Shown: piece by piece, positions 16,264-54,581 of the stretch | Layout: each line of letters begins with the position of its first letter | Position numbering within the stretch: position 1 is the first letter of the stretch | Assembly: GCA_037132275.1 (NCBI GenBank) | Contig: JBAXPK010000005.1 | Location: 3,122 to 67,121 of the forward strand | Source of the DNA: a bacterium | GTDB taxonomy: Bacteria > Verrucomicrobiota > Kiritimatiellia > CAIKKV01 > CAITUY01 | Reading direction: 5' to 3' | DNA length: 64,000 nucleotides | The notes under the pieces: model-generated | What the model saw: the letters and a program-made list of their open reading frames with translations, nothing else | What the model was told of the DNA's origin: nothing | Databases searched by the model: none | Program-made: the position numbers and the translations under genes

Positions 16264-16439
16264 GAAAACACTCTCCCTGGAAACAATGACTGCTCCAAAT
16301 ATCTTGCGGAATCTATCAGAATCGCCTTGTGATGCGCAATGACTAAGAGTCTGCAATAAATGGCGGGACAACCCGTGAACTCAATGGACAGTTATTTCGC
16401 CATCCGTTATAACTTCAGCCCTATCAAGGAGCATAGGTT

Positions 16440-16697
16440 ATGGATGTCAGATCAGTTATTGACGTTGAGCAGAGGTTAATTCAGGAGGTGGCACTCATCT
16501 TGTGCAAGGAGCCTGCCGCCATCAAGCCGGATGTTTCCCTGCCGTCGCTGGGGTTGGACTCCATGGGATTTGTGGAATTGCTGGTGGTGATTGAAAAAGC
16601 TTTTGGCCTCCGCCTGATCGAATCCGGACTCACCCGCGAGGATTTTGAGACCATTCATGCGCTTGCCGCCCGTATCAGCAAGGAAGCCCCGGGATGA
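16440..16697 (+). CDS. acyl carrier protein (85 aa, stand-alone)
   Basis: Phosphopantetheine-attachment motif 'LGLDSMGFVELL'. The stop overlaps the next start (ATGA). Confidence 0.7.
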   Translation: MDVRSVIDVEQRLIQEVALILCKEPAAIKPDVSLPSLGLDSMGFVELLVVIEKAFGLRLIESGLTREDFETIHALAARISKEAPG

Positions 16698-21944: not shown

Positions 21945-23024
21945 ATGGTTGAAAACAGAACGAAAAGAGATGCCCAGTCCGGTCCGACGGCAATTGAGAT
22001 CCGTAATGTGAGCAAGCGGTTTGGCGCGGTAGCCGCGCTCGATGAAGTGTCGTTTGCGGTGCAGCCGGGCGAAATGTTTTTTCTCATCGGGCCGTCAGGC
22101 TGCGGGAAAACCACGCTGCTTCGTATTCTGGCCGGCTTGGAGACGCCGGATTCCGGGACGGTTTTTTTTAATGGCCGGGATGTGGCCTCGCTTCCGGCGC
22201 ATGAGCGCGGGGCGCCGATGGTGTTTCAGAATTATGCCCTTTGGCCACACCTGAATGTCCGCGACAACGTGGCCTTTGGGTTGGTGGAGCGACATGTTTC
22301 CAAAAGCGAGGTTTCGACCAGAGTTGAGGATGTTCTGAAGCGAGTGGGACTTGAGGGGATGGGAACACGCCTGCCAGGGCAACTCTCCGGAGGACAGCAG
22401 CAGCGGGTGGTTTTGGCGCGTGCCCTGGTTCTGAATCCCTCCGTGATCCTGCTTGATGAACCGCTCTCCAACCTCGACGCCAAATTGCGCGTCGAGATGC
22501 GGCAGGAGATTGAAAAACTCCGGCGCGATACCGGCATCACGTTTGTCTATGTGACCCATGACCAGACGGATGCGCTGGCCCTGGCTGACCGGATGGCGGT
22601 GATGGTGGCGGGAAAGGTGTCCGCCATCGGAACCCCGCTTGACCTTTATGCCCGCCCGCCGAATCTTTTTTGCGCTGATTTTCTGGGAGAGGCGAATTTT
22701 ATCGAGGGTCTGGCGAATGAGGGGACGGTTCAGACGAAGCTGGGCACGTGGAGGGTGGGAGAGTACTCCTTGTCTGGTTCGGTTGTCTGTCTGGTGCGGC
22801 CGGAGAATATCCAAGGCGTGGAGGGGGATGGTTCCGGGATGAATGTATTTGAGGCGGACGTGACCGGGGTGCGGATCAATGGCGCCACGGTGACGGTATC
22901 GTTGGCAGTGGCCGGGCAGGCCCTGAAGGCGACCCTCCTGACGCAGCGTAGTCTGGGGATCAGGTCGGGAGATCGCCGCATGTGGGGGATTGCGCCGGAG
23001 AATGTGGTGCTGTTGCATCCATGA
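21945..23024 (+). CDS. ABC transporter ATP-binding protein (PotA/FbpC/MalK-type importer ATPase with a C-terminal TOBE-like domain)
   Basis: Walker A 'GPSGCGKTT', signature 'LSGGQQQRVVLARAL', Walker B 'ILLDEPLSNLD', H-loop 'YVTHDQ'. Confidence 0.85.
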   Translation: MVENRTKRDAQSGPTAIEIRNVSKRFGAVAALDEVSFAVQPGEMFFLIGPSGCGKTTLLRILAGLETPDSGTVFFNGRDVASLPAHERGAPMVFQNYALWPHLNVRDNVAFGLVERHVSKSEVSTRVEDVLKRVGLEGMGTRLPGQLSGGQQQRVVLARALVLNPSVILLDEPLSNLDAKLRVEMRQEIEKLRRDTGITFVYVTHDQTDALALADRMAVMVAGKVSAIGTPLDLYARPPNLFCADFLGEANFIEGLANEGTVQTKLGTWRVGEYSLSGSVVCLVRPENIQGVEGDGSGMNVFEADVTGVRINGATVTVSLAVAGQALKATLLTQRSLGIRSGDRRMWGIAPENVVLLHP

Positions 23025-24803: not shown

Positions 24804-25370
24804 ATGGCGTTACAGGTTATTTCCCAGGCGATTCCCGAGGTCAAATTGATCATTCCGGATGTGTTCGGCGATTCCCGGGGGTTCTTCCAGGAAACCTTTC
24901 ATAGGGAGAAATACAGTGCCGCCGGTATTGCCGTGCCATTTGTCCAGGATAACTGGTCCCGCTCCATAAAAGGAACCCTGCGCGGGCTCCATTACCAGCT
25001 CGACAATCCGCAGGATAAACTGGTCTGGGTGGTTCGCGGTGAAATTTATGATGTCGCCGTGGACATTCGGCGTGACTCGCCCACCTTCGGAAAATGGGTG
25101 GGCGCCGTATTGTCCGAAACCAATCACCACCGCTTTTTTATTCCCGTCGGCTTCGCGCACGGGTTCTGTGTGTTGAGTGATGGGGCCGATTTCATGTATA
25201 AGTGCAGCAACTATTATTCCCCCAAGGATGAGAAGGGAATACTATGGTCCGATCCGGCCCTGGCCATTCCCTGGCCGATCGAGAGCCCGATCCTCTCGAA
25301 ACGGGACATCGGCCTGCTCCCTCTTAAGGATATGAGGCCGGAAGATCTTCCCGTCTATCCGACGTCATGA
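24804..25370 (+). CDS. rfbC: dTDP-4-dehydrorhamnose 3,5-epimerase
   Basis: 'RGFFQETF', 'LRGLHYQ' and 'KLVWVVRGEIYDVAVDIR' are RmlC cupin hallmarks. No rfbA/B/D nearby. Confidence 0.8.
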   Translation: MALQVISQAIPEVKLIIPDVFGDSRGFFQETFHREKYSAAGIAVPFVQDNWSRSIKGTLRGLHYQLDNPQDKLVWVVRGEIYDVAVDIRRDSPTFGKWVGAVLSETNHHRFFIPVGFAHGFCVLSDGADFMYKCSNYYSPKDEKGILWSDPALAIPWPIESPILSKRDIGLLPLKDMRPEDLPVYPTS

Positions 25371-26332
25371 ACTATTATCCTACAGCGTCCCTTTCTCCCG
25401 AGGCCCGAAAGCGGCTGGAGGAGCGGGTGGGGAGGGCGCTTCTGGCACATCGGCTTCACATGGAAGCCCATTGGGTATCCCGGGCGAGGAGAGTCGGGGT
25501 AACCACTTTCCATATCGGGGGCTTGCTGTGGTACCACTGGTTCATGAGGGTGGGATTCAAGATGCTGGGACTGTATGGGTGGGGTCAACACAATACGCTT
25601 AAGATAAGGGTGCGGCTTAACCGGCTTCCCCTTCATGGACTACCCCCTGAATTTGAAGGCTTCACGATTCTTCAACTATCCGATCTGCATCTCGATGCGA
25701 ATCCCAAATTGGTGGACGCCGTGGTGGCGGCCATCCAGCCGCTGGCGTACGACATCGCGGTCATTACCGGCGATTTCCGGGTCAGCACGTTTGGCGGAAC
25801 CGATCCCGTCCTGGCCGCCCTCGCGCGGCTTCGCCCGGCGATTAAAGGCGACGTGTATGCCGTCATGGGTAACCATGATTTTATTGAGATGTTGCTCCCG
25901 GTGGAGGCCCTGTCCATCCGATTCCTGATGAATGAGCATGTGATGCTGCGGCGCGGGAACGGGTCGCTTTGCCTCGCCGGCGTGGATGATCCCCATTACT
26001 ATGAGACTGACAACATTCAGGCGGCCGCGGCGCACTTGAACCATGATGTGCCGTCGATTCTGTTGTCCCACTCTCCTGAGATATACAAGAAGGCGGCGGC
26101 ATGCGGGTTTGATGCCCTGCTGTGCGGTCACACGCATGGCGGCCAGATTTGTCTGCCCGTCGGCATTCCCGTTTTGCAGAATTCCCGGGCCCCGTGGCGA
26201 ATGGCGCAAGGCGCCTGGGACTACCAGGGGATGCGGGGCTACACCTCTTCAGGGACCGGCAGTTCAGGCGTGGATGTCCGCTTCTGGTGCCCCCCGGAGA
26301 TCACGCTGCATACGCTGACGGCAAACAGGTAG
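25367..26332 (+). CDS. membrane-anchored calcineurin-like metallophosphoesterase (YkuE-like)
   Basis: N-terminal hydrophobic segment 'VTTFHIGGLLWYHWFMRVGFKMLGLYGW'. MPE motifs 'QLSDLHLD', 'ITGDFRV', 'VMGNHDF' and 'LCGHTHGG'. The start overlaps the rfbC stop (ATGA). Confidence 0.65.
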   Translation: MNYYPTASLSPEARKRLEERVGRALLAHRLHMEAHWVSRARRVGVTTFHIGGLLWYHWFMRVGFKMLGLYGWGQHNTLKIRVRLNRLPLHGLPPEFEGFTILQLSDLHLDANPKLVDAVVAAIQPLAYDIAVITGDFRVSTFGGTDPVLAALARLRPAIKGDVYAVMGNHDFIEMLLPVEALSIRFLMNEHVMLRRGNGSLCLAGVDDPHYYETDNIQAAAAHLNHDVPSILLSHSPEIYKKAAACGFDALLCGHTHGGQICLPVGIPVLQNSRAPWRMAQGAWDYQGMRGYTSSGTGSSGVDVRFWCPPEITLHTLTANR

Positions 26333-42488: not shown

Positions 42489-43565
42489 TCACTTCATCCA
42501 GATAGGCAGGAGCGCCCGCTCGATCCAGTAGGACAATACGGCTGTGATCGGGATAGTGAGCACCCATGCCCAGACGATGCGGCCCACAATACCCCATTTT
42601 ACGGCGCTGAGGCGTTTGGTGGCTCCGACCCCCATAATGGAGGTTGAGATGACGTGGGTGGTGGAGAGCGGGATGCCCCAATGGGTGGCTAGGGAAATCA
42701 CGGCGGCCGCCGTCGTTTGTGCCGCAAATCCGTGAATGGGCTGCATCCGCACAATCTTGTGTCCCATAGTTCGTATGATCCGCCAGCCGCCCGCAGCGGT
42801 TCCGGCCGCCATGGTCAGGGCGCATGTCACCTTGATCCAGGTGGCCACGGTAAACTCGGGGGTTCTCAGGAACTCCAGCCAAGGTGGTAGGGCCCCGAAG
42901 GAAGTGCTTTTGGTTGTGGCGGTGAAGAGGATGAGGGCGATGATCCCCATGGTCTTCTGGGCATCGTTTGTGCCATGACTGAAACTGATCCACGCGGCGC
43001 TCACCAGTTGGAGTTTGGAAAACACCTTGTTGATCAGCAGGGGGCGCATCTTGTGAAGCAGCACGACCAGCAGCGCCATCAGCAGGGCGCCAAAAACAAA
43101 CCCGACGGCGGGCGAGATAAACATAGGCATGATCACCTTGGGCCAGAGGCCTTCCATGTGCCCCGAGGCGGTGTTGGGAACGGCCCACCGGATGACGTGC
43201 CAGTTATCATGGGAGGACGCCAGGGTGGCGCCGCAGAGTCCGCCAATCAGGGCATGACTCGAACTGGATGGCAAACATAACCACCAGGTCAGCAGGTTCC
43301 ACACGATGGCGCCCAGCAGCGCGGCCAGAATGGTGTCAATGCCCACAAACTGGGTATCCACCAGTCCCTGGCCGATGGTCTTGGCCACAGCCACCCCAGC
43401 CATGGCGCCCAGCAGGTTGAAGCAGGTGGCCATGGCCACCGCCTGGCGCGGCGTTAACACTTTGGTTGAAACGGTGGTGGCGATAGAGTTGGCGGTGTCG
43501 TGGAAGCCGTTGATATACTCGAAGGCTAACGCGATCAGCAGCACTGTCAGGATAAGGATCAGCAT
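42489..43565 (-). CDS. pitA: inorganic phosphate transporter, PiT family
   Basis: PHO4 signature repeats 'GFHDTANSIATTV' and 'SFSHGTNDAQKTMGII'. Confidence 0.85.
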   Translation of the reverse strand: MLILILTVLLIALAFEYINGFHDTANSIATTVSTKVLTPRQAVAMATCFNLLGAMAGVAVAKTIGQGLVDTQFVGIDTILAALLGAIVWNLLTWWLCLPSSSSHALIGGLCGATLASSHDNWHVIRWAVPNTASGHMEGLWPKVIMPMFISPAVGFVFGALLMALLVVLLHKMRPLLINKVFSKLQLVSAAWISFSHGTNDAQKTMGIIALILFTATTKSTSFGALPPWLEFLRTPEFTVATWIKVTCALTMAAGTAAGGWRIIRTMGHKIVRMQPIHGFAAQTTAAAVISLATHWGIPLSTTHVISTSIMGVGATKRLSAVKWGIVGRIVWAWVLTIPITAVLSYWIERALLPIWMK

Positions 43566-43596
43566 GCGTGTATTTTTCGGGGTGCGGGTTTAAGCG

Positions 43597-44247
43597 TCAG
43601 GAATACTTGAGCACGACCTGGAAAATGATGTTGCCGACATCCCGGCAACGGTCGATGATTTTCTCCAGGGTTTCGTGGAGGTCAAGGATGATAATCACCT
43701 TCAAGGGATCATGTTTTCCACTATAGAGATCCTTGACAAGATCAAGCATCAGTTTGTCGGCCTCGCCCTCGAGATAATGGAGGCGGATATTGTATTCCTT
43801 CATTTCTTCGAGATGCGCCCGGGTTCGCAGTTTGGTCACCATTTGGGACACGGTCTCGGTGGTTTGCTCGAGAATGGTCGCCTGATCCAGGAAATTGGCG
43901 TCCTTCAGCATATCGGTGCAGAGCATGTACTTTTCGCTGAATTTCTCGGCGGTTTTCGGGATTTTGTAGAGTGCCAGGGAGAGGGACTCGATGTCCTCGC
44001 GCTCCAGCGGGGTCACGAAAGTTTTGCAAAGTTCTTCCGTGATCTGCTCCGTGATCCGCTTATCTTTCCGGCGGGAATGAATGAAATCGCCCATGGAGGT
44101 GATCCCCTCCGGCTTTTTTAGCAAGGTCAGCAGAAGCTGAACACTGGCTTTGGCCTCATCGGCACTGGCTTCAAGGAGGTCGAAAAACTTGTCGTCATAC
44201 CCGAGTAGTCGTCTGATAGCAGTTATCATGGGAAGAATTAATGCCAT
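43597..44247 (-). CDS. DUF47/TIGR00153-family protein (PhoU-like Pit accessory protein)
   Basis: 216-aa helical protein directly upstream of pit (31-nt gap), the canonical DUF47-PiT pairing. Confidence 0.7.
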   Translation of the reverse strand: MALILPMITAIRRLLGYDDKFFDLLEASADEAKASVQLLLTLLKKPEGITSMGDFIHSRRKDKRITEQITEELCKTFVTPLEREDIESLSLALYKIPKTAEKFSEKYMLCTDMLKDANFLDQATILEQTTETVSQMVTKLRTRAHLEEMKEYNIRLHYLEGEADKLMLDLVKDLYSGKHDPLKVIIILDLHETLEKIIDRCRDVGNIIFQVVLKYS

Positions 44248-44344
44248 AGAGCGTCAAAATAATCACGTCAATTCCGTGAATGAAAACGAAATTCTCATCA
44301 AACGCTCATTTTCCCCTTACAAAGATTGGTGATTATTCTGGAGT
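44248..44344. promoter_or_regulatory. AT-rich divergent promoter region (DUF47-pit <-> PHP-GT4) containing 11-bp-spaced direct repeats 'CTCATCAaacgCTCATTT' (44294-44311) and 'CGTCAA..CGTCAA'; weak Pho-box-like candidate
   Basis: Read directly. Two 7-nt half-sites separated by 4 nt mimic Pho-box geometry (CTGTCAT-N4-CTGTCAT), 34-51 nt upstream of the ATG at 44345. Sequence similarity to the consensus is partial. Confidence 0.3.
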
Positions 44345-46750
44345 ATGAAGCCAACATCATCAGGTTACACAAGCTCCATGAAGGCGGATCTTCATGTGCA
44401 CAGTAAGTATTCCGACCGGCCGACCGAATGGTTTCTGCGGCGGATCGGTGCGCCGGAATGTTTTGCCGAGCCGGAGGATGTGTATCGTGTCTGTCGGGAA
44501 AAGGGGATGGATTACGTTACCATATCGGATCACAACTGTATTGACGGAGCTCTTGAAATCGCCCATCTTCCGGGTACCTTTATCTCGGCGGAGTTGACCA
44601 CGTATTTCCCCGAGGATGGGTGCAAAATCCATTGCCTGGTACAGGATATCACCGAGCGGCAGTTTTCGGACTTACAGATCATCCGGAAGAATATCTACGA
44701 CCTGCGGAAATATCTGGCCGATGAAGCCATCCTCCATGTTATTGCGCATCCGTTGTTTCGGGTGAACGACGTGCTGACCGTCGAGCATGTTGAAAAACTG
44801 CTTTTGCTATTCGAGCGCTTTGAAGCCATCAACGGGTCACGCCACCCCAGGGCAGGGGATTTGACTGTAGCGCTGTTTTCCCAGCTTACCGAGGAGCAGA
44901 TTTGGGCCATGTCTGACCGGCATGGAATCCAGCCCTATGGCAAGACTACGTGGGTGAAACGTTTCACGGGAGGCAGCGATGATCACAGTGGTCTATACGC
45001 CGCCAGCGCTTATACGGTCACCCCCCCTGCCGATTCGGTGCAGGAATTCCTGGCGCATTTGCGTGCGGGGCGTCATGAACCCCGTGGAACTCCGGGCACC
45101 AGTTTACGCCTGGCACATAGTCTCTATCACATCGCTTACCAATATTATCGCAGCCGCCTTTTGAACCATGGGGCGGGATCCTCGGTACTTGGCGAATTAT
45201 TTAAGCGCCTGTTGAGCGGTTACGAAGAGCCGGAAAAAACGTCCGGGCCGGTCCGCGCCTGGGCGGAACGGGTCATCAAGAAATATCGTGTCCGAAAACT
45301 GAGTCCTGGGGAGCGGTTGATGGTGGAGTCATTTTCGAAATTGCGTGGGAATTCGGCTCCGGGTGGAGGATTGGTAGGTCGGCGTGTGGGGCCTGACGTC
45401 GAAAACTTTGCCACGGCCAGCCGGATCAGCCACGAACTCGGGTATGCGTTCCTGCAACAATTCCTCGGTCATGTGGAGGAAGGACGCCTGGTTGACGGAT
45501 TCCAGTCGCTGGCGTCGATGGGCACCGTGATGCTGGGGATCGCCCCCTATTTAACGGCGTTCGGGGTTCAGCATAAGGACGAGCGATTTCTGCAGGAAGC
45601 CGCCACCCGTCTCGGGGGAGGTCTCGTCTGTCCCGAGCGCAGTCATCGTCGCGCGTGGGTCACGGATACCTTCAGCGATGTGAACGGGGTGTCCCACACC
45701 ATCCGGATGCTCACTGAAAAAGCCCGTGGCCGCGGCTGGCCCATCACCGTCATGACAGCCATGGAATCCCCGCCCGACACCGGGACGGAAGCGGTCAATT
45801 TTCCTCCTTTGGGAACGTTTTCCCTGCCGGAGTATGATTCCCAAAAAATGGTATTCCCTCCCTTTCTGGATGTGATCGAAGCCTTGGAGCGGGGAAACTA
45901 TTGCGAGGTGATCATCTCGACTCCCGGCCCCATGGGGTTGACGGCGTTGATGGCCGCTCGACTTTTAGGCATCAAGTCTGCGGGTATCTACCACACGGAT
46001 TTTCCGAAATATGTCAAGTGCCTCACTCAGGATGAGTCGCTTGAGCAACTGGCCTGGAGATACATGGTGTGGTTTTATGGACAGATGGATCGGATTCATG
46101 TCCCGAGCGAGTATTACAGGAATCTTCTGGCCGAAAATGGCTTTGACAAGGCCCGGCTTAAAGTGTTGCCGAGAGGTGTGGATCTGACCCGTTTTAACCC
46201 CGGGAAACGCGATGGGAATTTCTGGAAGCGATATGGCCTCAATGGGAACCTCAAATTGCTGTATGTGGGGCGCGTCTCGAGAGAGAAGAACATCAAGACC
46301 CTGATCGACGCCTTCCAGATTGCGCGGACCACTACGCCCAATCTGGATTTGATCGTGGTTGGGGATGGCCCTGAACTCGCGACGTTCCGCCATCAACACA
46401 AGGACAGCAATATTTGTTTCACGGGTGTTCTTCACGGGGAGGAGCTGGCCACCGCGTACGCGAGCGCAGACCTGTTTGTGTTTCCGAGCGCGAGCGATAC
46501 CTTCGGCAACGTGGTGCTGGAAGCCCATGCGTCCGGTTTGCCGGCCATCGTTTCAACGCAGGGTGGTCCCGCCGAGATTGTTGCGCGAAATGGATCGGGC
46601 CTTGCCGTGGATGTGAGAACCCCGGCTCCCCTATGTGCCGGTATCCGGGATCTCGTTTGGGACGGCAATCGACGGGCTGATATGGGGCGAAGCGCTTTGA
46701 AAACGGCGCTTGAGATGAGTTGGGACAAGGCTCTCGATCAATTATTCTGA
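44345..46750 (+). CDS. fusion protein: N-terminal PHP (polymerase/histidinol-phosphatase family) phosphoesterase domain + C-terminal GT4 glycosyltransferase (801 aa)
   Basis: PHP motifs 'ADLHVHSKYSD', 'ISDHN', 'HPLF' and 'GGSDDHSG' in the first ~250 aa. GT4/GT-B motifs 'LLYVGRVSREKNIKTLIDAF', 'LIVVGDGPE' and 'FVFPSASDTFGNVVLEAHASGLPAIVS' in the last ~330 aa. Confidence 0.6.
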   Translation: MKPTSSGYTSSMKADLHVHSKYSDRPTEWFLRRIGAPECFAEPEDVYRVCREKGMDYVTISDHNCIDGALEIAHLPGTFISAELTTYFPEDGCKIHCLVQDITERQFSDLQIIRKNIYDLRKYLADEAILHVIAHPLFRVNDVLTVEHVEKLLLLFERFEAINGSRHPRAGDLTVALFSQLTEEQIWAMSDRHGIQPYGKTTWVKRFTGGSDDHSGLYAASAYTVTPPADSVQEFLAHLRAGRHEPRGTPGTSLRLAHSLYHIAYQYYRSRLLNHGAGSSVLGELFKRLLSGYEEPEKTSGPVRAWAERVIKKYRVRKLSPGERLMVESFSKLRGNSAPGGGLVGRRVGPDVENFATASRISHELGYAFLQQFLGHVEEGRLVDGFQSLASMGTVMLGIAPYLTAFGVQHKDERFLQEAATRLGGGLVCPERSHRRAWVTDTFSDVNGVSHTIRMLTEKARGRGWPITVMTAMESPPDTGTEAVNFPPLGTFSLPEYDSQKMVFPPFLDVIEALERGNYCEVIISTPGPMGLTALMAARLLGIKSAGIYHTDFPKYVKCLTQDESLEQLAWRYMVWFYGQMDRIHVPSEYYRNLLAENGFDKARLKVLPRGVDLTRFNPGKRDGNFWKRYGLNGNLKLLYVGRVSREKNIKTLIDAFQIARTTTPNLDLIVVGDGPELATFRHQHKDSNICFTGVLHGEELATAYASADLFVFPSASDTFGNVVLEAHASGLPAIVSTQGGPAEIVARNGSGLAVDVRTPAPLCAGIRDLVWDGNRRADMGRSALKTALEMSWDKALDQLF

Positions 46751-46751
46751 C

Positions 46752-48470
46752 ATGGATCTCTTCATGATTGACGGGATCGGGCCCTTCTTTCTAGGGCATC
46801 CCAAGCGAACTGTAAACTGGTCCAAGATTCCCTTTTCCGCCCTGGAACGCAATGGCCATGTCAAAGCGGACGTGTTCAGGGAGATCCGGGAAGCCTTCAC
46901 CCGTTTTGCAGGCACGGCGGCCTCCCTTGGGTTCAATGCCATCTCGCTCGATGACCTGGCGCACTTGACCGACTCTTTCGCCTACCCGCCGCCCCTCCGG
47001 GACAGGATCGCCGCCTATCGGTATGAATTCGCGGCCCTTTTTGAAATTGCCCGGGCAGCGGGACTCCAGGTCTACATGACCACCGATATCTCGTTCTTTA
47101 ACCGGGAGTTGGATGAGCGACTGGGACGGGATGACAGCAAGATCATTCGGTTTCTGGGCGATGCTGTCGATGCCTTATTCCGGGATTTCCCCTCAGTCCA
47201 GGGGATTATCGCCCGTTTCGGGGAATCCGACGGACTGGATGTCCATGGCGATTTTCTGAGTCGGCAGATCTTGAGGACTCCCCGTCAGGCCCGCTGTTAT
47301 GTGGAGGCGCTATTGGCGGTGTGTGAAACCCGTCGCCGCACCCTGATCATGCGCACCTGGAGTCTGGGGGCCTATCGCATCGGAGATTTGATGTGGAACA
47401 GGAAAACCTACGAGGCGGTATTCACAGGGCTTGAACATCCCCGGTTGATTCTTTCCCTGAAATACGGGGAGACGGATTTTTTCAAATACGTTCCCCTCAA
47501 TCGCCATTTTCACGATGATTCCCGACACAACAAAATGATCGAACTTCAGGCCCGCCGCGAATACGAGGGGGGCGGGGAATACCCTTCTTTCATCGGCTGG
47601 GATTATGAGCGGTACGAAAAGGAACTGGCTTCCTGTCGCAATGTGGTGGGGGCTTGGATCTGGTGCCAGACGGGAGGATGGACGACATCGCGCCGGATTA
47701 CCTTTGTGAAGGATTCATCCCTCTGGAATGAGATCAATGTGGCGGTGACCATCAGGGTGTTCAAGGAGCACCAGGGGGTGGAGTCGGCGGTGCGGCAGTA
47801 TTGCGCCATTCATATGCCCGGTGTCCCTGCCGTGTCCCTGCTCGAATTACTCCGCCTTTCCTCTGAAGTGGTGTCCGAGTTACTATATGTGGATGACTAC
47901 GCCCGTTGTGCGGTCTATTTCAGGCGATTGAGGTTGCCTCCCCTCATGCATGTCTTGTGGGACGCCGTGTTCATCACTGATACGATGCGCATCTTTTTGC
48001 GTCACTTTGTGCGGGATTTGGAAGGGAAAATAAGTCAGGGGTACGAGGCTCTCCGCAAAATTCAGAGGATGATCGCGCTGGCGGAGGAGATGGGACTCCC
48101 TGCGGAGGGATTGAAAGCCCAGTATGCAGTCTATGAGGTTCTTGCGGTGGCGCGCGAATACTTCTTCAGGCCCGCCAATCCGGCGGTTGAAAGCCGGTTG
48201 CGCGGGCTCATCCGACGAATCCATCAATCCCCGGCGGAGAACCATTATGTGTTTGTCGTACGGTTCAACAGATCCTGGATGGGCGCCGGACTGATCCGCT
48301 TTGTTTTAAGGCATTTGCTTCGGCACCGACGGGCCTATCGTCTTGCAGATCGGCTTGTGCTGCTGCGGGTGCTGGCTTGGGTGGGGTGGGGACTCAAGTT
48401 TGTCCCGGCACACCGGCTTCCCCGGGTGGCGGTTTCGCAAGGGATGGGTCTTCGTCATTTCCTGAAATAG
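46752..48470 (+). CDS. conserved hypothetical protein (572 aa), function unknown; cytoplasmic
   Basis: Starts 1 nt after the PHP-GT4 stop (tight coupling). No recognisable family motif and no TM segment. Arg/Trp-rich C-terminus. Confidence 0.45.
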   Translation: MDLFMIDGIGPFFLGHPKRTVNWSKIPFSALERNGHVKADVFREIREAFTRFAGTAASLGFNAISLDDLAHLTDSFAYPPPLRDRIAAYRYEFAALFEIARAAGLQVYMTTDISFFNRELDERLGRDDSKIIRFLGDAVDALFRDFPSVQGIIARFGESDGLDVHGDFLSRQILRTPRQARCYVEALLAVCETRRRTLIMRTWSLGAYRIGDLMWNRKTYEAVFTGLEHPRLILSLKYGETDFFKYVPLNRHFHDDSRHNKMIELQARREYEGGGEYPSFIGWDYERYEKELASCRNVVGAWIWCQTGGWTTSRRITFVKDSSLWNEINVAVTIRVFKEHQGVESAVRQYCAIHMPGVPAVSLLELLRLSSEVVSELLYVDDYARCAVYFRRLRLPPLMHVLWDAVFITDTMRIFLRHFVRDLEGKISQGYEALRKIQRMIALAEEMGLPAEGLKAQYAVYEVLAVAREYFFRPANPAVESRLRGLIRRIHQSPAENHYVFVVRFNRSWMGAGLIRFVLRHLLRHRRAYRLADRLVLLRVLAWVGWGLKFVPAHRLPRVAVSQGMGLRHFLK

Positions 48471-48502: not shown

Positions 48503-50371
48503 ATGGTTTTAACAGAAGCCGTCTATGATGACGGCATTATGCAAACTACTCATGCCCTTGACTGTCAGGTTATTCCGTCTGCCGCGTGGCCGTTGCCCGG
48601 CAGGGGAATAGCTCCAATGGCCAACCGTATTCTGGGAGGTGTTTTCCAGTTGGACAGGTTGGCCGGCCTGTATGAGGAAATCCGGGAGGACAATACGTCC
48701 CAGTCCTTTGTTGATCGGGCATTGGCCTGCCTTGACGTAAGCCACAACATTGTCCATGGCGGCCTTGAGGCCATTCCCCGGGAAGGCCCCCTTCTGGTGA
48801 TAGCCAATCACCCCTTTGGCGGAGTTGAGGGCCTGGTGTTGCTGAGCCTTCTGGCGGCCGTTCGACCGGATGTCAAAGTAATGGCCAACCAGCTGCTATC
48901 GGCCATTCCAGAGCTTCACAAGCATATGATCCTGGTGGATCCTTTTGGTGGTTCCAGGGCGACGGGAAATAATCTAGCCCCTGTACGGCAGAGTTTGCGA
49001 TGGCTCAAAAACGGCGGCGCGCTGGGCGTGTTTCCCTCGGGCGAAGTGGCGCATTTCGATTTGGCCCGAAGGCGGATTTGCGAATCCGAGTGGTCTCTGA
49101 CTATTGCCCGTCTGATGCGGCATAGCGGGGCGGCCGTGCTTCCCGTCTTTTTCGACGGGGCGAATGGCCCGCTCTTCCAGATGGCAGGCCTCATTCATCC
49201 CCGGTTGCGGACGGCAATGCTCATCCGGGAGATGGTCAACAAGACGGGCCACTCGCTGAAGGTGAGTATTGGCAGGGTTCTTCCGCATGCCAAATTGGAA
49301 ACTATTCAGGATGATGCGGAACTTACCCGTTACCTGAGGATGCGTGTCCAATTGCTCGGGCAGGTCGGGGTGGTGACCCGTATCCGGAAGACTGGGCGGG
49401 CATGGGGTGGGCGCACGGCGCCCGTGGCCTCTGCCGGAGCGGCCGGAGATCTAGCGCGGGAAGTGGCCTGGCTTTCGCCGGAACAGAAATTAGCGGAAAC
49501 GAGCGGTTACCAGGTGTATATCGCCGGTGCCAACCAGATTCCCGGCGTGCTCCGCGAAATCGCGCGTTTACGCGAGGTGACGTTCAGGGCTGTCGGGGAG
49601 GGAACAGGGCACGCCCAAGATATGGATGTATTCGACAGGTTCTACCAGCACTTGTTTGTATGGAACGAAAATAAATCAGAAGTGGTTGGGGCGTATCGCC
49701 TGGGTCTGACAGATAAAATTCTTTCCCAATTCGGAGTGGATGGGCTCTATACCAGCACCCTTTTCAAGTATAAATGGAATACGATCGAAGCGTTGAGTCC
49801 CGCGATTGAAATCGGGCGATCCTTTGTCCGCCAGGAATACCAACGCAAACATCTTCCCCTCCTTCTGCTTTGGAAGGGGATTGGCGCGTATGTGGCCAGG
49901 AATCCGAAATACCGGAACCTGTTCGGAACGGTCAGCATGAGTAATCAGTATAACGAGACCTCGCGTCAATTGGTGGCCCATTTCTTCGAGCAGGAGAAGC
50001 TCAACCAACCCATCCAATTGTCGGTGCGTCCGAGAAATCCATTAAGAATGAAAGGGACGCCTGTGGGGGACGCGAGGGGGCCTGTCTGTCGTATCCCCGG
50101 TTTGGAAGCCCTCTCCGAGATGGTAAGCGAAATCGAGGAGGATGGAAAAGGAATCCCCGTGCTGATGCGGCAGTATATGAAACTGGGGGGGCGGGTATTG
50201 GCCTGCAATGTGGATCCCAAATTTAACATGGCGCTCGATGCGCTTCTGGTGGTGGATTTGACCCGCACCGATCCCCGGTTTCTTGAACTCTACATGGGGA
50301 CGATGGCGGCAGGGTATCTCCGCCATCATGGGGTGGGGGCCAGCGAGGAAAGGCAGGCCCAATGTGCCTGA
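48503..50371 (+). CDS. OlsF-like bifunctional acyltransferase: N-terminal lysophospholipid-acyltransferase (PlsC/LPLAT) domain + C-terminal OlsB-like GNAT (Acetyltransf_5) N-acyltransferase domain; candidate aminolipid (ornithine/lysine/glycine lipid) synthase
   Basis: LPLAT motifs 'LVIANHPFGGVEG' (block I-like) and 'GVFPSGEV' (FPEGT-like block III). C-terminal ~250 aa ('YRLGLTDKIL...YTSTLFKY...IEIGRSFVRQEYQRK..LLLLWKGIGAYV') resembles OlsB/hemolysin-like GNATs. The combination equals the OlsF architecture. Confidence 0.5.
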   Translation: MVLTEAVYDDGIMQTTHALDCQVIPSAAWPLPGRGIAPMANRILGGVFQLDRLAGLYEEIREDNTSQSFVDRALACLDVSHNIVHGGLEAIPREGPLLVIANHPFGGVEGLVLLSLLAAVRPDVKVMANQLLSAIPELHKHMILVDPFGGSRATGNNLAPVRQSLRWLKNGGALGVFPSGEVAHFDLARRRICESEWSLTIARLMRHSGAAVLPVFFDGANGPLFQMAGLIHPRLRTAMLIREMVNKTGHSLKVSIGRVLPHAKLETIQDDAELTRYLRMRVQLLGQVGVVTRIRKTGRAWGGRTAPVASAGAAGDLAREVAWLSPEQKLAETSGYQVYIAGANQIPGVLREIARLREVTFRAVGEGTGHAQDMDVFDRFYQHLFVWNENKSEVVGAYRLGLTDKILSQFGVDGLYTSTLFKYKWNTIEALSPAIEIGRSFVRQEYQRKHLPLLLLWKGIGAYVARNPKYRNLFGTVSMSNQYNETSRQLVAHFFEQEKLNQPIQLSVRPRNPLRMKGTPVGDARGPVCRIPGLEALSEMVSEIEEDGKGIPVLMRQYMKLGGRVLACNVDPKFNMALDALLVVDLTRTDPRFLELYMGTMAAGYLRHHGVGASEERQAQCA

Positions 50372-50414: not shown

Positions 50415-50906
50415 TTGCTGGCAACGCTCGGTGTGTTGGCGACGGTTTTCGCGAAAGTTGAAATTCAGATTGAAGGAGCTGCAGGGTGGGCGGCCAACCT
50501 GCCCACATGGCGGCTTGAACACCATTGGGTGCTCGATCTTATCTGGGGTGGACGTCCTTTGACCGGGTATCACGTTTGGGTTTTTCTGTTCATGGCCCTG
50601 GTTTTTCACCTGATGTTTTTTATTCATGGCCGCTATGCCATTCGTCTTGAACTCCGGGTGCTGGGGAGTTTGGCGGTATTCTGGATATTGGAAGATTTTC
50701 TCTGGTTTGTGATGAATCCCGCCTACGGTTTGTCAAGATTCAACCCGCAGTGCATTCCTTGGCACCACCATTGGATGTTGGGTATTCCTGTGGATTATGT
50801 CGTGTATCTGGCCGTGGGGATCCTGATGCTCTGGCTTTCCATCCGGCGGCGCAAGCTGGCGTCACGCCCTGTAGCGGTTCGTGATGCCATTCCGGGGAAA
50901 TTATGA
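50415..50906 (+). CDS. small polytopic membrane protein (about 4 TM, unknown function), translationally coupled to the downstream GT28
   Basis: The track ORF (50283) overlaps the upstream gene by 89 nt, and the first in-frame ATG would delete TM1. Start placed tentatively at in-frame TTG 50415 (alternatives GTG 50433, TTG 50436). Hydrophobic, W/H-rich helices. Stop overlaps the next ATG (ATGA). Confidence 0.35.
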   Translation: MLATLGVLATVFAKVEIQIEGAAGWAANLPTWRLEHHWVLDLIWGGRPLTGYHVWVFLFMALVFHLMFFIHGRYAIRLELRVLGSLAVFWILEDFLWFVMNPAYGLSRFNPQCIPWHHHWMLGIPVDYVVYLAVGILMLWLSIRRRKLASRPVAVRDAIPGKL

Positions 50907-52024
50907 AGATCCTGATTCTCCATGCCTCGGCCGGGGCCGGGCATCGGCGTGCGGCGGAGGCCCTCGCGGCAGCCTGTCTACAGGAAGGGATTCAGCCTAT
51001 CGTGCATGACATTTTGGAATTCACCCCACCGCTCTTTCGGACCACTTATGCTGCGGGATATTTGAACATGGTGCGATCCGCCCCTGAGCTTTGGGGCTAC
51101 CTCTATTCGCTGACGGATCGGAAAAGCCAGACACCTTGGCACCGGCGAATCCGAACCACATTCAATAAGCTAAACACCAAGTCATTTGAACGCTTCCGCC
51201 GGGAACTCCAGGCGGATGCGGTGATCTGTACCCATTTTCTCCCCTTGGAAATACTGGGGCGGCGTCGTCCGAAGGACGCAGGTAAGGTGCCTCTGTTTGG
51301 GGTGGTCACGGATTTTGCGGCCCATTCATTGTGGTCATGCCCAAACGTGGACGGATATTTTACTGGATGCGAAGAGGCACGTCGGCAGTTAATTCGGATG
51401 GGCCAGCCGCCTGGACGTGCCTGGGTGACAGGGATTCCGATTTCCCCCGAGTTCGTCCCCCCGGCCGATGTCGTTAATTTGCGTATTCGCATGGGCTTGG
51501 CTCCCGATCTCCCGGTCATCCTAATATTGTGCGGCGGATTCGGTGTCGGAGCGATTGTGGATGTATTGGGTGCTTTTGCCAAAGAGCCGCTTCAGGCACA
51601 ACTGGTGGTGGTGACCGGCAATAATGAAGCGTTACGGGATCGGGCGGCCCGGAAGGCCAGGGAGTTGACGATGCCAGTGATGTTGCATGGATTCGTCTCG
51701 AATATTCATGAATTGATCGGTGTGGCCGATGTGGTCATCAGCAAGCCGGGCGGTTTGACTTCGGCGGAGGTTCTGGTGATGGGGTGCCCGCTTGTGATCA
51801 TGGATCCCATTCCCGGACAGGAGCAGAGGAATGGGGAATATCTGCTTGAAAACGGGGCGGCGGTTCGATTGGTGGATCCCTGGGATGCCCCGTTCAAGGT
51901 TTGGCCGATTCTGGAAAATCATGAACGCCGCCGCTCTATAAGTGCGGCCGCCCTACGTCTGGCCAAGCCGGATGCCGCCCGGGTGATTGTGCGGGAGGTG
52001 GCGAGGCAGGTTGGCAGAGTCTAA
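50903..52024 (+). CDS. MGDG-synthase-like GT28 glycosyltransferase (diacylglycerol glycosyltransferase; UgtP/MGD-type)
   Basis: N-terminal 'KILILHASAGAGHRRAAEAL' (MGDG_synth) and C-terminal GT28 'VISKPGGLTSAEVLVMGCPLVIM.PIPGQEQRN'. Confidence 0.7.
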   Translation: MKILILHASAGAGHRRAAEALAAACLQEGIQPIVHDILEFTPPLFRTTYAAGYLNMVRSAPELWGYLYSLTDRKSQTPWHRRIRTTFNKLNTKSFERFRRELQADAVICTHFLPLEILGRRRPKDAGKVPLFGVVTDFAAHSLWSCPNVDGYFTGCEEARRQLIRMGQPPGRAWVTGIPISPEFVPPADVVNLRIRMGLAPDLPVILILCGGFGVGAIVDVLGAFAKEPLQAQLVVVTGNNEALRDRAARKARELTMPVMLHGFVSNIHELIGVADVVISKPGGLTSAEVLVMGCPLVIMDPIPGQEQRNGEYLLENGAAVRLVDPWDAPFKVWPILENHERRRSISAAALRLAKPDAARVIVREVARQVGRV

Positions 52025-52104: not shown

Positions 52105-52791
52105 ATGGTCAAGAAACATATCGTGTTCGTTGAAGATGAGCCGGATATTGCCGATTTGCTTTCCTATAACCTGACCCGGGATGGGTATGAGGTTACGGGG
52201 CTTTCCAATGGGGAACAGGCGATGCAAATCATTCCCCGGAAGAAGCCCCATCTTGTTTTGCTGGATCTGATGTTACCCGGTATGAGCGGCTTGGAAATTT
52301 GCCGCTTGCTCAAGGCCAAGCCTGAAACGGCAACGATCCCCATTATCATGGTCACCGCCAGGGGCGAGGAAACGGATGTGGTGGTCGGATTGGAGATGGG
52401 GGCGGACGATTATGTTGCCAAGCCTTTCAGCATGAAGGTGCTCCTGGCCCGGATTCACAGCGTGCTTCGGCGGCGCGAAAAGGGACCCGCCAAGACAGAT
52501 GATGTGCTTAAAGTTCATGACATCATGATCAATCCCGGGCGTCACGAGGTCGTGTGCGGGAAAGCCTCGATCGAGTTGACGGCCTCGGAATTCCGGCTGC
52601 TCCATTTCCTGGCGCAGCGGCCGGGATGGGTGTTTACCCGCGAACAGATTGTAGATGGCGTGAAGGGGGAGGATTATGCGGTGACCGATCGGGCGGTGGA
52701 TGTTCAGGTGGTTTCCCTGCGGCGCAAGCTCGGGAAACGCGGGGATTATGTCGAGACGGTGCGCGGGGTGGGGTATCGCTTCAAGGAGTGA
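52105..52791 (+). CDS. phoB: OmpR/PhoB-family response regulator (REC + winged-helix)
   Basis: REC 'IVFVEDEPDIADLL...LDLMLPGMSGLE...ARGEETD...GADDYVAKPFS' and wHTH '...VGYRF'. Assignment as PhoB is by context (PiT/DUF47 upstream, PhoR-like kinase downstream). Confidence 0.7.
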   Translation: MVKKHIVFVEDEPDIADLLSYNLTRDGYEVTGLSNGEQAMQIIPRKKPHLVLLDLMLPGMSGLEICRLLKAKPETATIPIIMVTARGEETDVVVGLEMGADDYVAKPFSMKVLLARIHSVLRRREKGPAKTDDVLKVHDIMINPGRHEVVCGKASIELTASEFRLLHFLAQRPGWVFTREQIVDGVKGEDYAVTDRAVDVQVVSLRRKLGKRGDYVETVRGVGYRFKE

Positions 52792-54581
52792 TGATGCGGT
52801 CTAAACGTTTATTCTGGCGAATCTATGCTTATTTTTTGATGGCGACCCTCGGTGCCTTGGTGGCGACCGCCTGGTATGCCGACCATTTATTGTACACCTT
52901 TCATCAAAATCAGGTTACCGCTGATCTTCTGGCCCGCGCCCAGATCATCGCGCGGGAACTGACGCCTCCCTTGGATCATGGCGATGATCCGGTTGCCTTG
53001 GATAAAATGTTCAAGGAGTTGGGGCGGCTGACGATGTCTCGTATCACGATCATCCTGCCCGATGGCCGGGTTATCGCGGATTCTTCGGAGAATCCGGCGA
53101 CGATGGAAAATCATCGTAACCGGCCTGAAGTCGATGCCGCGCTGGCCGGGAGGACGGGGCAATCCTTGAGGTATAGCGATACGCTTCGGCGGCGGTTGAT
53201 GTATCTGGCCATTCCGGTATGGAAAGACGGGTCAGTGGCTGGCGTGGTACGCGTCTCGCTTCCGCTGGCGGTTGTGGATGAAACCATCAGAACCCTGTAT
53301 CGCGACATTGCCCTTGGCGGCCTTGTGGTGGCCGGGGTGTTTGCCGTGTTGGCTCTGGCCATTTCCCGCCGGATCACCCGGCCGTTGGAATATATGCGGC
53401 AGGTTTCCGAGCAATTTGCACAGGGGGAGTTGGCGGCCCGTATCCCTGTGCCTGATACGGACGAAATGGCGTCTCTGGCGCGCACGATGAACCAGATGGC
53501 GGCGCAGCTTCATGAAAGGGTGCGTACCGTGGCCCTTCAGCACAACGAGCAGCGCGCCGTTCTGGCCAACATGGTCGAGGGGGTTCTGGCGGTGGATGTG
53601 GCGGAACATATCCTGCACATCAATCCCGCCGCCTGCCGGTTGCTGGGCCTCAAGCCGGACGAGGGCCGGGGGCGCCATATCCTCGAAATAGTGCGCAATA
53701 TAGACCTGCAGGAGTTCCTGGTTGAAACCTTGAGCGCCGCCGGTCCCACGGAGCGGGAAATTGTGCTTCGCGGCGATGCCGAACTGGTTATCCAACTGCA
53801 TGGTGCCGTCCTGAAAAATGCGGATGGCGCCAACATTGGGGCGCTGGTGGTGATGAACGATATCACCCGCATGAAGCGGTTGGAATCGATGCGCCGTGAT
53901 TTTGTCGCCAACGTTTCGCATGAACTCAAGACCCCGATCACAACCTTGAAGGGCTGTGTCGAGACCCTGTCCGAGGGGGCGGTGCATAACCCTGAGGAAT
54001 CAAGGCATTTTCTGGAGATGATGGGCCGCCATGTGCATCGCCTGGAAGCCATGGTCGAGGATCTCCTGGTTCTATCGCGTCTGGAGTATGAGTCGGAGCG
54101 CGGCGACATTGTGTTGGAACCCGGAGCCATTCAAGATGTTTTGGCGCGTGCCGTTCAGGCTTTTGCGAAGCGGGCGGAGGCCCGGGGGATTCTGCTGGTC
54201 ATGGATTGCCCGGATTCCTTGAGGGCCTTGATCAATGCGCCGCTCCTGGAGCAGGCGGTTGGAAATCTGTTGGATAACGCGATCAAGTACAGTTCAGAAG
54301 AGACGCGTATCAACGTGACAGCGGTTCAGGCGGATACCTGTATTGAGATTCGCGTAGCCGACCAGGGACCGGGTATCGAGAAGAAACACTGGGGCCGAAT
54401 TTTTGAGCGATTCTACCGCGTGGATCAGGCCCGCAGTCGCGCCATGGGTGGCACCGGCCTCGGACTGGCGATCGTAAAACATATTGCCATTGCCCATCAC
54501 GGTAGCGTTTCCTTGGAAAGTGTTCCCGGGCAGGGCAGTACATTCATGCTGCGCGTGCCGACCCACGCCGCTCCGTCATGA
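52791..54581 (+). CDS. phoR: PhoR-like sensor histidine kinase (2 TM, HAMP, PAS, HisKA, HATPase_c)
   Basis: Start at 'MMRSKRLFWRIYAYFLMATLGALVA' overlapping the phoB stop by 1 nt. H-box 'FVANVSHELKTPITTLKG'. N/G-boxes 'LLDNAIKYS', 'DQGPGIEKKHWGRIFERFYRVD' and 'GTGLGLAIVKHIA'. Confidence 0.75.
   Translation: MMRSKRLFWRIYAYFLMATLGALVATAWYADHLLYTFHQNQVTADLLARAQIIARELTPPLDHGDDPVALDKMFKELGRLTMSRITIILPDGRVIADSSENPATMENHRNRPEVDAALAGRTGQSLRYSDTLRRRLMYLAIPVWKDGSVAGVVRVSLPLAVVDETIRTLYRDIALGGLVVAGVFAVLALAISRRITRPLEYMRQVSEQFAQGELAARIPVPDTDEMASLARTMNQMAAQLHERVRTVALQHNEQRAVLANMVEGVLAVDVAEHILHINPAACRLLGLKPDEGRGRHILEIVRNIDLQEFLVETLSAAGPTEREIVLRGDAELVIQLHGAVLKNADGANIGALVVMNDITRMKRLESMRRDFVANVSHELKTPITTLKGCVETLSEGAVHNPEESRHFLEMMGRHVHRLEAMVEDLLVLSRLEYESERGDIVLEPGAIQDVLARAVQAFAKRAEARGILLVMDCPDSLRALINAPLLEQAVGNLLDNAIKYSSEETRINVTAVQADTCIEIRVADQGPGIEKKHWGRIFERFYRVDQARSRAMGGTGLGLAIVKHIAIAHHGSVSLESVPGQGSTFMLRVPTHAAPS

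Follow-up and report, generated by a model that had tools for sequence, protein, structure and literature searches.

A PHP phosphoesterase–GT4 glycosyltransferase fusion in a Pho-linked lipid operon: a candidate single-chain enzyme for phosphate-starvation lipid remodelling

Our analysis of a 64,000-nucleotide stretch of DNA from a bacterium of the class Kiritimatiellia (the window) identified a gene whose product joins an N-terminal PHP phosphoesterase domain, a helical middle domain, and a complete GT4 glycosyltransferase. The fusion architecture is real, and the gene lies within a Pho-linked membrane-lipid operon. We read the fusion as a cytoplasmic, membrane-peripheral two-enzyme protein of phosphate-starvation lipid remodelling, with a probability of about one half. 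The two enzymatic halves merit different degrees of confidence: homology and the genetics of a protein with the same architecture indicate that the GT4 half is very probably a glycolipid synthase, while the proposal that the PHP half acts on a lipid to release diacylglycerol has at best an even chance of being right. The replacement of phospholipids by glycolipids is a major bacterial answer to phosphorus scarcity, and in anoxic waters and sediments the abundance of glycolipids is read as a sign of phosphorus stress; to our knowledge, no bacterial source of the diacylglycerol precursor other than the phospholipase C PlcP is established. Anaerobes and soil phyla are rich in this fusion family, and in a model sulfate reducer one of its members is genetically needed for all glycolipids. 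If the PHP half does supply diacylglycerol, a pathway gap in these organisms would be closed, the PHP superfamily would gain a new substrate class, and environmental transcriptomics would gain a single-gene marker. The features of the region are the following, in coordinates of the window:

42489..44229, minus strand: divergent pair of DUF47 (PhoU_div) and PiT phosphate transporter genes (PF01865, PF01384)
44294..44309, plus strand: Pho-box-like direct repeat CTCAT-N6-CTCAT (TTCTCAT caaa CGCTCAT, 11-bp period)
44378..46750, plus strand: PHP-helical-GT4 fusion gene, 790 aa (801 aa from an alternative in-frame upstream ATG at 44345)
44378..45127, plus strand: PHP phosphoesterase domain (residues 1-250, 790-aa numbering)
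45128..45649, plus strand: helical middle domain (residues ~250-424, ~175 aa; from secondary structure)
45680..46192, plus strand: GT4 N-terminal Rossmann half (PF13439, residues 446-616, 75.2 bits; cut-off 28.5)
46247..46699, plus strand: GT4 C-terminal, nucleotide-sugar half (PF00534, residues 635-785, 109 bits; cut-off 26.4)
46764..48470, plus strand: ORF2, 568 aa, predicted GH67 alpha-glucuronidase-like fold (AF2 model and Foldseek)
48617..50371, plus strand: OlsF-like bifunctional aminolipid (ornithine lipid) synthase (top match NF052615 OlsF, 400.8 bits; cut-off 620)
50559..50906, plus strand: hydrophobic ORF of 115 aa, overlapping the GT28 start by 4 nt
50903..52024, plus strand: GT28 MGDG_synth-type diacylglycerol glycosyltransferase, UgtP/YpfP-like (PF06925, 95 bits)
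52105..52791, plus strand: phoB-like response regulator (top match TIGR02154 PhoB, 257 bits; cut-off 296)
52794..54581, plus strand: phoR/pnpS-like sensor kinase (NF046044 PnpS, 370 bits, cut-off 400; TIGR02966 PhoR, 299 bits, cut-off 334)

The genomic context described in the initial annotation, with PiT/DUF47 divergent and an OlsF-like synthase, a GT28 enzyme, and phoB/phoR downstream, was borne out in every element. The OlsF-like gene carries the Pfam domains Acetyltransf_5 and Acyltransf_2, and the GT28 gene scores 212.7 bits against the diglucosyl-diacylglycerol synthase model NF010135 (cut-off 500). Two genes had been left out of that annotation, namely ORF2, between the fusion and olsF, and the 115-aa hydrophobic ORF 5' of the GT28 gene, for which no family match was obtained. 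The 801-aa open reading frame at 44345..46750 (plus strand) is also genuine, and the motifs HVHSKYSD, ISDHN, and GGSDDHSG were all found in its translation. The translation start is, however, likely to be the methionine at 44378, because homologues open with MK(A/S)DLHVHS, the annotation of the source contig places the start there, and nucleotide conservation with an 85%-identical relative sets in at this position. In an exact-protein look-up, the 790-aa version was matched, whereas the 801-aa version was not.

The link to phosphate was also observed around other members of the family. In about 10 separate lineages, they adjoin phoBR, pst, phoU, ppx, CHAD, olsF, dgkA, or PAP2 genes; one locus combines phoU-pstBACS with a GT4 and a PAP2 gene, Ppx-PhoB-PhoR occurs in Acidobacteriota, and single loci have a GT4 with a diacylglycerol kinase (L025), an OlsF (L082), or a CHAD protein (L017). 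Counting any neighbouring response regulator or kinase as PhoBR proved too loose and was dropped; strict marker criteria were adopted because the kinases next to the genes of Chthoniobacterales, L082, and L019 are CckA/TorS-like and not PhoR. Among loci of at least 15 kb, a strict phosphate marker was present in 14 of 50, and most had neither a phosphate nor a lipid neighbour. In the window, the Pho-box-like repeat lies about 70-85 nt 5' of the start at 44378, in the divergent promoter region common to DUF47/PiT. It is the sole exact match in the window (expectation 0.10), and since 10 of 100 shuffles contained at least one match, it is not significant alone. No block of the intergenic alignment with the relative L006 is better conserved than the repeat, and a generalised Pho-box-like pattern was found 9 times upstream of family genes, against 1.2 expected; the repeats of Acidobacteriota read CTGTCAC. 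We predict, from the adjacent phoBR and the upstream repeats, that the fusion is under PhoB control.

For the PHP half, the Pfam evidence and the residue evidence differ. The PHP::GT4 architecture proposed in the initial annotation is recovered by Pfam on its GT4 side, while the PHP models stay under threshold: PF02811 gave 14.6 bits (gathering threshold 26.4) and PHP_C (PF13263) gave 16.6 bits (threshold 21.3), and at E<=0.01 they matched 8 and 21 of 68 family members, respectively. The metal-ligand residues, by contrast, are present. The N-terminal domain has the distorted (beta/alpha)7 barrel common to solved PHP enzymes, and the proposed ligands are H6, H8, D13, H52, E72, H85, H124, D201, and H203, in a register that agrees with that of RNase AM. 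Across the 68 family members, H52, E72, H85, H124, and H203 are conserved in all, D201 in 67, and H6 and H8 in 61 of 62; the ninth position, D13, is D, N, S, or E. Such conservation indicates a functional metal site maintained by selection. Three further residues, E149, N152, and D202, are specific to the family and vary little, if at all, between phyla. A family profile had no match among PDB sequences at E<=1, and a single-sequence phmmer search returned only noise. The domain resembles the TrpH/YciV-type PHP enzymes (RNase AM, 7ug9/9etk; BAD_1165, 3o0f; TM0559, 2anu; Cv1693, 2yb1; 3e38; and PsfC, 7rty) in fold and in the metal-ligand motifs HxH, DH, E, H, AHP, and GSDxH. It differs from them in sequence (14-19% identity), in the extra invariant E149, N152, and D202, and in being always accompanied by a helical domain and a GT4 half. 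The known substrates of these relatives are nucleotides or RNA and not lipids, and some of the closest structures are uncharacterised. In the literature searched, we found no lipid-acting enzyme of the PHP superfamily, nor any PHP-lipid link or PHP-GT4 fusion beyond the study of Bosak et al. (2016).

At E<=1e-30, 460 clusters belong to the fusion family, which occurs in no fewer than 585 species genomes of Desulfobacterota, Planctomycetota, Verrucomicrobiota, Acidobacteriota, and Lentisphaerota. Most members in reference genomes have 760-845 aa, orthologues of ~800 aa are general in Desulfovibrionales, and 63 of 135 new family representatives are long and 46 of mid-length. The impression that short forms (~620 aa) are the dominant type was rejected, since it arose from how the nearest metagenomic relatives were sampled. 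The short forms of ~600 aa consist of the PHP domain, the helical domain, and only the N-terminal half of the GT4 (one of them, L003, aligns to residues 2-602 of the fusion), often adjoin a separate complete GT4 gene, and conserve the PHP ligand residues though they have no functional transferase. In GT-B enzymes, the N-terminal half is the acceptor, or lipid, side. The existence of proteins that retain only the lipid-acceptor half of the GT4 gives indirect support to a role of the PHP half as supplier of diacylglycerol.

The helical domain, which the initial annotation had not described between the PHP and GT4 parts, contains a basic helix at 291-306 and a conserved, moderately hydrophobic helix at 377-397 with the consensus APYLAAFxTQHKDE. 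Its hydropathy (KD19 1.38) is under the transmembrane threshold, and a structural search with this domain gave no specific match. We infer that it sits at the membrane interface.

It is important to consider that a GT4 acting as a phosphate-starvation diacylglycerol glycosyltransferase could also be accompanied by a PHP half that makes no diacylglycerol and salvages phosphate as a phosphatase or phosphodiesterase of soluble substrates. Candidates would be phosphoethanolamine and glycerol-3-phosphate (headgroups freed by another phospholipase), UDP or nucleotides from the transferase, and glycerophosphodiesters. The nearest PHP structures are indeed nucleotide or RNA phosphoesterases (RNase AM, the nucleotide-bound Cv1693, and TM0559), and the co-location of Ppx, CHAD, PiT, and Pst suits a general theme of phosphate salvage. 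Diacylglycerol might also come from elsewhere, such as the PAP2 lipid phosphatase in L003 or a PF00149 metallophosphoesterase gene at 25367-26332 of the window, 18 kb from the fusion. The latter is closest to YaeI/LpxG, at sub-threshold scores, and could be the PlcP-type enzyme of the organism; with it present, PHP need not have replaced PlcP here. Salvage leaves unexplained, however, why the short forms, while losing the sugar-nucleotide half, keep the GT4 acceptor half along with the helical domain, and why the covalent fusion persists across many phyla. We consider it less likely than the production of diacylglycerol by the PHP half, which is the preferred reading.

In the GT4 half, both Pfam halves score well above their thresholds, in accordance with the complete GT4 domain claimed initially, and PF13692 scores 98 bits. 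The C-terminal half contains GRVSREKN, a GRxxxxK phosphate-binding motif, and the D-x7-E motif FPSASDTFGNVVLEA (DTFGNVVLEA); among 90 long forms, conservation of its second E and of the residues beside it is 95% or higher. A match to PF20706, 'GT4-conflict' (37.9 bits), raised the candidate of a defence system, which was rejected: the match was attributed to the kinship of GT4 models with one another because much stronger general GT4 matches overlie it and the neighbours observed are phosphate- or lipid-related. The top-scoring curated GT4 model was GpgS (NF053787), with 133 bits over residues 526-800, far short of the equivalog cut-off of 480. GpgS, the GlcNAc-phosphatidylglycerol synthase of P. 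aeruginosa (PMC12713373), is likewise a GT4 with a glycerolipid acceptor, but it has no PHP domain.

The initial annotation knew of no characterised member of this architecture; our study identified a probable one in Dde_3613 of Desulfovibrio (Oleidesulfovibrio) alaskensis G20, for which mutant genetics are available and the same two domains, PHP and GT1, are annotated (PMC5193443). This protein, named 'Agt', is needed for the synthesis of both MGDG and GADG under phosphate limitation only; its transposon mutant then makes no glycolipids, and the mutant loses fitness solely when phosphate is scarce (Bosak et al. 2016, PMC5193443). That study treated Dde_3613 as a plain Agt homologue, with no discussion of its PHP half or of where the diacylglycerol comes from (PMC5193443). 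We placed Dde_3613 in the family by its annotation and its orthologues in related genera. The G20 genetics favour diacylglycerol over phosphatidylglycerol as the acceptor, in which the family would differ from GpgS. Unlike the cluster in the window, Dde_3613 lies apart from olsF (Dde_3661) and phoR (Dde_3782) in G20.

An enzyme that does not act on lipids at all appears improbable to us. It would make a soluble glycoside via a phosphorylated intermediate (sucrose-phosphate, trehalose-phosphate, or MshA-type), or be a transferase for capsule/EPS paired with a PHP tyrosine phosphatase of the CpsB type. The source annotations read 'cell wall biosynthesis', the capsule-locus PHP tyrosine phosphatases are the sole PHP-glycan link in the literature searched, and the NCBIfam matches of the GT4 include MshA (89 bits) and a domain of sucrose-phosphate synthase (44 bits), each far short of its cut-off. 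Sucrose-phosphate synthase with its SPP-like domain and TPS-TPP are fusions of a GT-B transferase and a phosphatase of the same pathway and, like the present protein, hold both in a single chain. Their phosphatase, however, is of the HAD type and follows the transferase, with a soluble sugar phosphate as its substrate, whereas the phosphoesterase of our fusion is a PHP domain, is N-terminal, and is proposed to precede the transferase, on a lipid. Least probable of all, the PHP half might be a relic without catalysis, left with only a structural, membrane-targeting, or metal-/phosphate-sensing regulatory role in the transferase, as the drifted D13 position and the sub-threshold Pfam PHP model would allow, but the eight other ligands together with E149, N152, and D202 show the near-invariance across phyla that is typical of an active site, and the same residues are kept even in short forms that lack a functional transferase.

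Under the preferred reading, low phosphate would activate the adjacent PhoR/PhoB pair, and PhoB would bind the repeat at 44294-44309 and switch on the fusion, the GH67-like protein, OlsF, GT28, and phoBR. The PHP domain, as a metal-dependent phosphoesterase, would convert a phospholipid (by phospholipase-C-type cleavage) or phosphatidate to diacylglycerol, which the GT4 would then glycosylate with a hexose or hexuronic acid taken from a UDP-sugar; the helical domain and the N-terminal GT4 half would tether both the protein and the lipid on which it acts to the membrane. The predicted products are monoglycosyl- and/or glucuronosyl-diacylglycerol, in place of phospholipids. Such a system would follow the logic of PlcP and Agt with an unrelated phosphoesterase fold and in one chain. 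In Alphaproteobacteria, SAR11, and Pseudomonas, PlcP is a phospholipase C of the PF00149 metallophosphoesterase family and Agt is a GT4. The proposed likeness lies in a Pho-controlled phosphoesterase that yields diacylglycerol and a GT4 that turns it into glucosyl- or glucuronosyl-diacylglycerol; in both cases phosphoesterase and GT4 are genetically coupled. The differences are the PHP fold and the joining of both parts through a helical domain. Since Pfam gives no PF00149 match in the fusion protein and the N-terminus is PHP, the fusion is at most a functional analogue of PlcP and not a member of its family.

We tentatively extend this reading, as a proposal that we hold less firmly than its parts. 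The PHP half may be the first lipid-active member of its superfamily, a phospholipase C or phosphatidate phosphatase, which with the helical membrane module and a co-opted lipid-binding GT4 acceptor half would form a PlcP-independent route from phospholipid to glycolipid, as a single chain in the long forms or with a separate GT4 in the short ones. It may be the main route in sulfate reducers, Planctomycetota, Verrucomicrobiota, and Acidobacteriota, and the co-transcribed GH67-like protein may be a cytoplasmic glucuronosyl-lipid enzyme of the same system.

With regard to this last protein, ORF2 matched no Pfam (E<=0.01) or NCBIfam model, and one of its homologues reaches 19.9 bits against PF07488 (threshold 23.5); its 1174 homologues, of ~570 aa, are all unnamed. 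Its AF2 model has a pLDDT of 87.8, and the 11 best Foldseek matches in the PDB are all GH67 (E 7e-14 to 2e-10, TM about 0.5), so that ORF2 is predicted from the model to have the fold of the GH67 catalytic TIM barrel plus helical domain. The possibility that ORF2 is a paralogue of the N-terminal module of the fusion was rejected, given that they share no similarity. ORF2 has no signal peptide, and its C-terminus is hydrophobic/basic. A homologue of ORF2 adjoins the fusion in L002 and L006 too, and is found nearby in four further loci.

The fusion gene (44378..46750, + strand) falls into an established functional class, that of the Pho-linked glycolipid synthases, and has a relative that has been studied genetically. 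In Desulfovibrio alaskensis G20, a transposon mutant of Dde_3613 (agt), a gene annotated with PHP and glycosyltransferase domains, is without any monoglycosyl- and glucuronosyl-diacylglycerol under phosphate limitation, and the gene affects fitness solely at low phosphate (Bosak et al. 2016, PMC5193443); PHP, phosphoesterase and phospholipase are absent from the main text of that report. Orthologues of ~800 aa occur throughout the cultured Desulfovibrionales, one of them named 'alpha-monoglucosyldiacylglycerol synthase', and we are highly confident that Dde_3613 is a family member, placed by annotation and orthologues and not by alignment. The interpretation in the initial annotation is supported in part, but its statement that the architecture has no characterised member is, given this glycolipid-null mutant, wrong for the transferase function and correct only for the PHP function.

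The open reading frame first proposed (44345..46750, + strand) is present in the window with an uninterrupted translation, its three quoted PHP motifs are all found in the protein, and the GT4 described as complete is a GT-B transferase occupying the C-terminal 355 residues (PF13439, 75 bits; PF00534, 109 bits). Sequence comparison makes the Met at 44378 the more likely start, with a product of 790 aa rather than 801 aa, because the homologues begin with MK(A/S)DLHVHS, the exact 790-aa product is recorded on a 74-kb ENA metagenome contig, and the nucleotide alignment with a relative of 85% identity is conserved from 44378 onward; look-up found no record of the exact 801-aa product. Residue numbers refer to the 790-aa form. 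An in-frame upstream ATG (44345-44377) would add 11 residues; L006, a locus with a relative of the gene in another genome, also has one, and since its peptide is unrelated to the window's and there is a 3-nt indel, the extension is probably untranslated or functionless.

An exhaustive search with the PHP and helical parts, clustered at 50% identity, identified 460 clusters at E<=1e-30 and 1066 at E<=1e-10, and the family is present in at least 585 species genomes. The taxa include Verrucomicrobiota, Planctomycetota, Lentisphaerota/Kiritimatiellales, Acidobacteriota and Desulfobacterota (Desulfovibrio, Geobacter and Syntrophobacter relatives). Long forms (~760-845 aa), the majority in reference genomes, carry the entire GT4; short forms (~560-650 aa) keep the PHP and helical domains and end exactly behind the GT4 N-terminal half, for example at these loci in other genomes:

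L003:8007-9833, short form
L027:9992-11737, short form
L025:9992-11845, short form

A separate complete GT4, 31-34% identical to the fused one, follows the short form in L003, L007 and L025. In L057 and L061, a match to the GT4 C-terminal half lies directly after the short form, which may reflect a split gene or a frameshift.

The phosphate and lipid context claimed for the window was confirmed, with six same-strand genes separated by short gaps downstream of the fusion gene:

divergent from the fusion gene, DUF47-PiT
46764-48470, + strand, 568-aa gene (ORF2), first downstream
+ strand, OlsF-like aminolipid synthase (400 bits against the OlsF model, cut-off 620)
50559-50906, + strand, hydrophobic 115-aa ORF
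+ strand, GT28 transferase, MGDG_synth type
52105-52791, + strand, regulator, best model PhoB
+ strand, kinase, best model PhoR/PnpS

The 115-aa ORF, which shares 4 nt with the start of the GT28 gene, encodes a very hydrophobic, Trp/His-rich protein that matches no Pfam or NCBIfam model; it may work with the glycolipid enzymes as a small membrane partner. The PhoB-like regulators beside family members (window 52105-52791; L027, L029, L033, L049) score 257-268 bits against TIGR02154, just below its cut-off of 296, with PhoB still clearly the best model; the model seems tuned to Proteobacteria.

Elsewhere, the neighbours of short forms vary with lineage: phoU-pstBACS, a phosphate porin, a GT4 and a PAP2 phosphatase in L003 (and beside the family member of L004), a GT4 and diacylglycerol kinase in L025, and, in several Acidobacteriota, Ppx exopolyphosphatase with PhoB-best and PhoR-best genes after it. 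Family members also adjoin pstSCAB (L012), a CHAD protein (L017) and an OlsF-like gene (L082). Under strict criteria, a phosphate-homeostasis marker lies within 10 kb in 14 of 50 loci of at least 15 kb, from about ten lineages, the baseline for a random gene being roughly estimated at a few percent. In many loci, those of Chthoniobacterales among them, no phosphate-type neighbours occur, and the kinases there are not PhoR. Four Acidobacteriota loci have an ORF of ~730-780 aa divergent from the PHP gene, that of L027 having no Pfam match:

L027:7472-9769, - strand, divergent ORF
L031:7668-9977, - strand, divergent ORF
L033:7656-9854, - strand, divergent ORF
L032:7522-9873, - strand, divergent ORF

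The promoter region of the fusion gene contains a candidate regulatory site:

44294-44309, DUF47/fusion intergenic region, Pho-box-like repeat TTCTCAT-caaa-CGCTCAT

This single match is not significant alone (reached by 10 of 100 shuffles); the alignment with L006 shows it as the most conserved block. Generalised to TCAY-N7-TCAY, with an 11-bp period, the repeat has 9 occurrences, spread over 7 of the 78 independent upstream regions (shuffles 1.2 +/- 1.2, maximum 5 in 200; coding control 0); among them are sites of the CTGTCAC type in Acidobacteriota and, in a planctomycete, one next to pstSCAB. This enrichment is supportive of putative Pho regulation, not decisive, because the pattern was picked after the window's site was known. 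An inverted repeat with 5-bp arms nearby (TCACG-tcaattc-CGTGA, 44263-44279), not conserved in L006, was flagged by a terminator scan, but a terminator would be senseless in this divergent promoter region.

Pfam models do not reach threshold on the N-terminus (PF02811, 14.6 bits against 26.4; PHP_C, 16.6 against 21.3), so the PHP assignment fails the HMM test that the initial annotation had set but holds by fold and metal-site residues. At E<=0.01, PF02811 detects 8 and PHP_C 21 of 68 family members, and the family profile has no match among PDB sequences. H52, E72, H85, H124 and H203 are invariant, D201 (67/68) and H6 and H8 (61/62) nearly so, and D13 is the sole variable ligand position (D, N, S or E). 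Because these positions are conserved, the domain appears to be a divergent, catalytically competent PHP. The ~175-aa helical domain between PHP and GT4, for which no specific structural relative was found, has one basic helix and one conserved, moderately hydrophobic helix under the transmembrane threshold; the protein has no signal peptide, and we infer that it is cytoplasmic, on the membrane surface.

Beside the strongly supported elements (complete conserved GT4, PHP fold with conserved metal site, Pho/lipid context, glycolipid-null gene of the same architecture), the PHP half would act on a phospholipid or phosphatidate and so supply the diacylglycerol acceptor. The short forms give the strongest indirect argument: GT-B enzymes bind the acceptor through their N-terminal half, and these proteins drop the nucleotide-sugar half and keep this one beside PHP and the helical domain, which suggests that PHP depends on a partner that binds lipid. 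The dgkA and PAP2 genes clustered with family members also suggest that the metabolites shared are diacylglycerol and phosphatidate. By sequence, a putative phospholipase C cannot be told apart from a phosphatidate phosphatase. Counting against diacylglycerol production, the literature searched holds no lipid-active PHP enzyme, and the closest solved structures have nucleotides or RNA as substrates. A candidate PlcP-type phospholipase in the window also counts against it and bears on whether PHP replaces PlcP: a PF00149 (calcineurin-like) metallophosphoesterase adjoining rmlC (25367-26332, + strand; best NCBIfam matches YaeI, 85 bits, cut-off 188, and LpxG, 76 bits, cut-off 350). It is possible, if rather doubtful, that PHP is a soluble phosphate-salvage phosphatase joined to a bona fide glycolipid synthase. 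A non-catalytic relic is very improbable, being contradicted by the invariance of the PHP ligands. In the fusion, the transferase is joined to a conserved but so far unstudied phosphoesterase whose fold had no earlier tie to lipids in the literature searched.

ORF2 belongs to a family of 1174 matches, all ~570 aa; the proteins listed have no Pfam domain, and those named are 'hypothetical protein'. Its structure model is confident (pLDDT 87.8), its best 11 PDB matches are all GH67 alpha-glucuronidases (E 7e-14 to 2e-10), with GH138, GH20 and GH84 next, and the predicted fold is confidently GH67-like. The protein has a basic/hydrophobic C-terminal tail and no signal peptide. Relatives adjoin the fusion gene in L002 and L006 and lie nearby in L011, L014, L019 and L020; in the window, ORF2 is co-oriented with the fusion gene and olsF on either side. 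Because Agt-type enzymes make glucuronosyl-diacylglycerol, it is an attractive idea that ORF2 might act on glucuronosyl lipids.

Elsewhere in the window, a 1117-aa TMEM260-like O-mannosyltransferase with TPR repeats (13018-16371, - strand) lies beside a 439-aa ORF (16694-18013, + strand) with no Pfam or NCBIfam match. Carbohydrate genes at 931-13016 (+ strand) encode a PfkB kinase, a GH29 fucosidase, GH2, GH115 (another alpha-glucuronidase family), a GH63/MGH1-like enzyme and GH94, which suggests that the organism degrades polysaccharides. An ABC ATPase and a fused double permease (21945-24715, + strand) match models of a putative 2-aminoethylphosphonate transporter, PhnT2 (355 bits) ranking first and, for the permease, PhnU2 (164 bits) third behind molybdate-type permease models, all under cut-off; they may form a further phosphorus-acquisition system.
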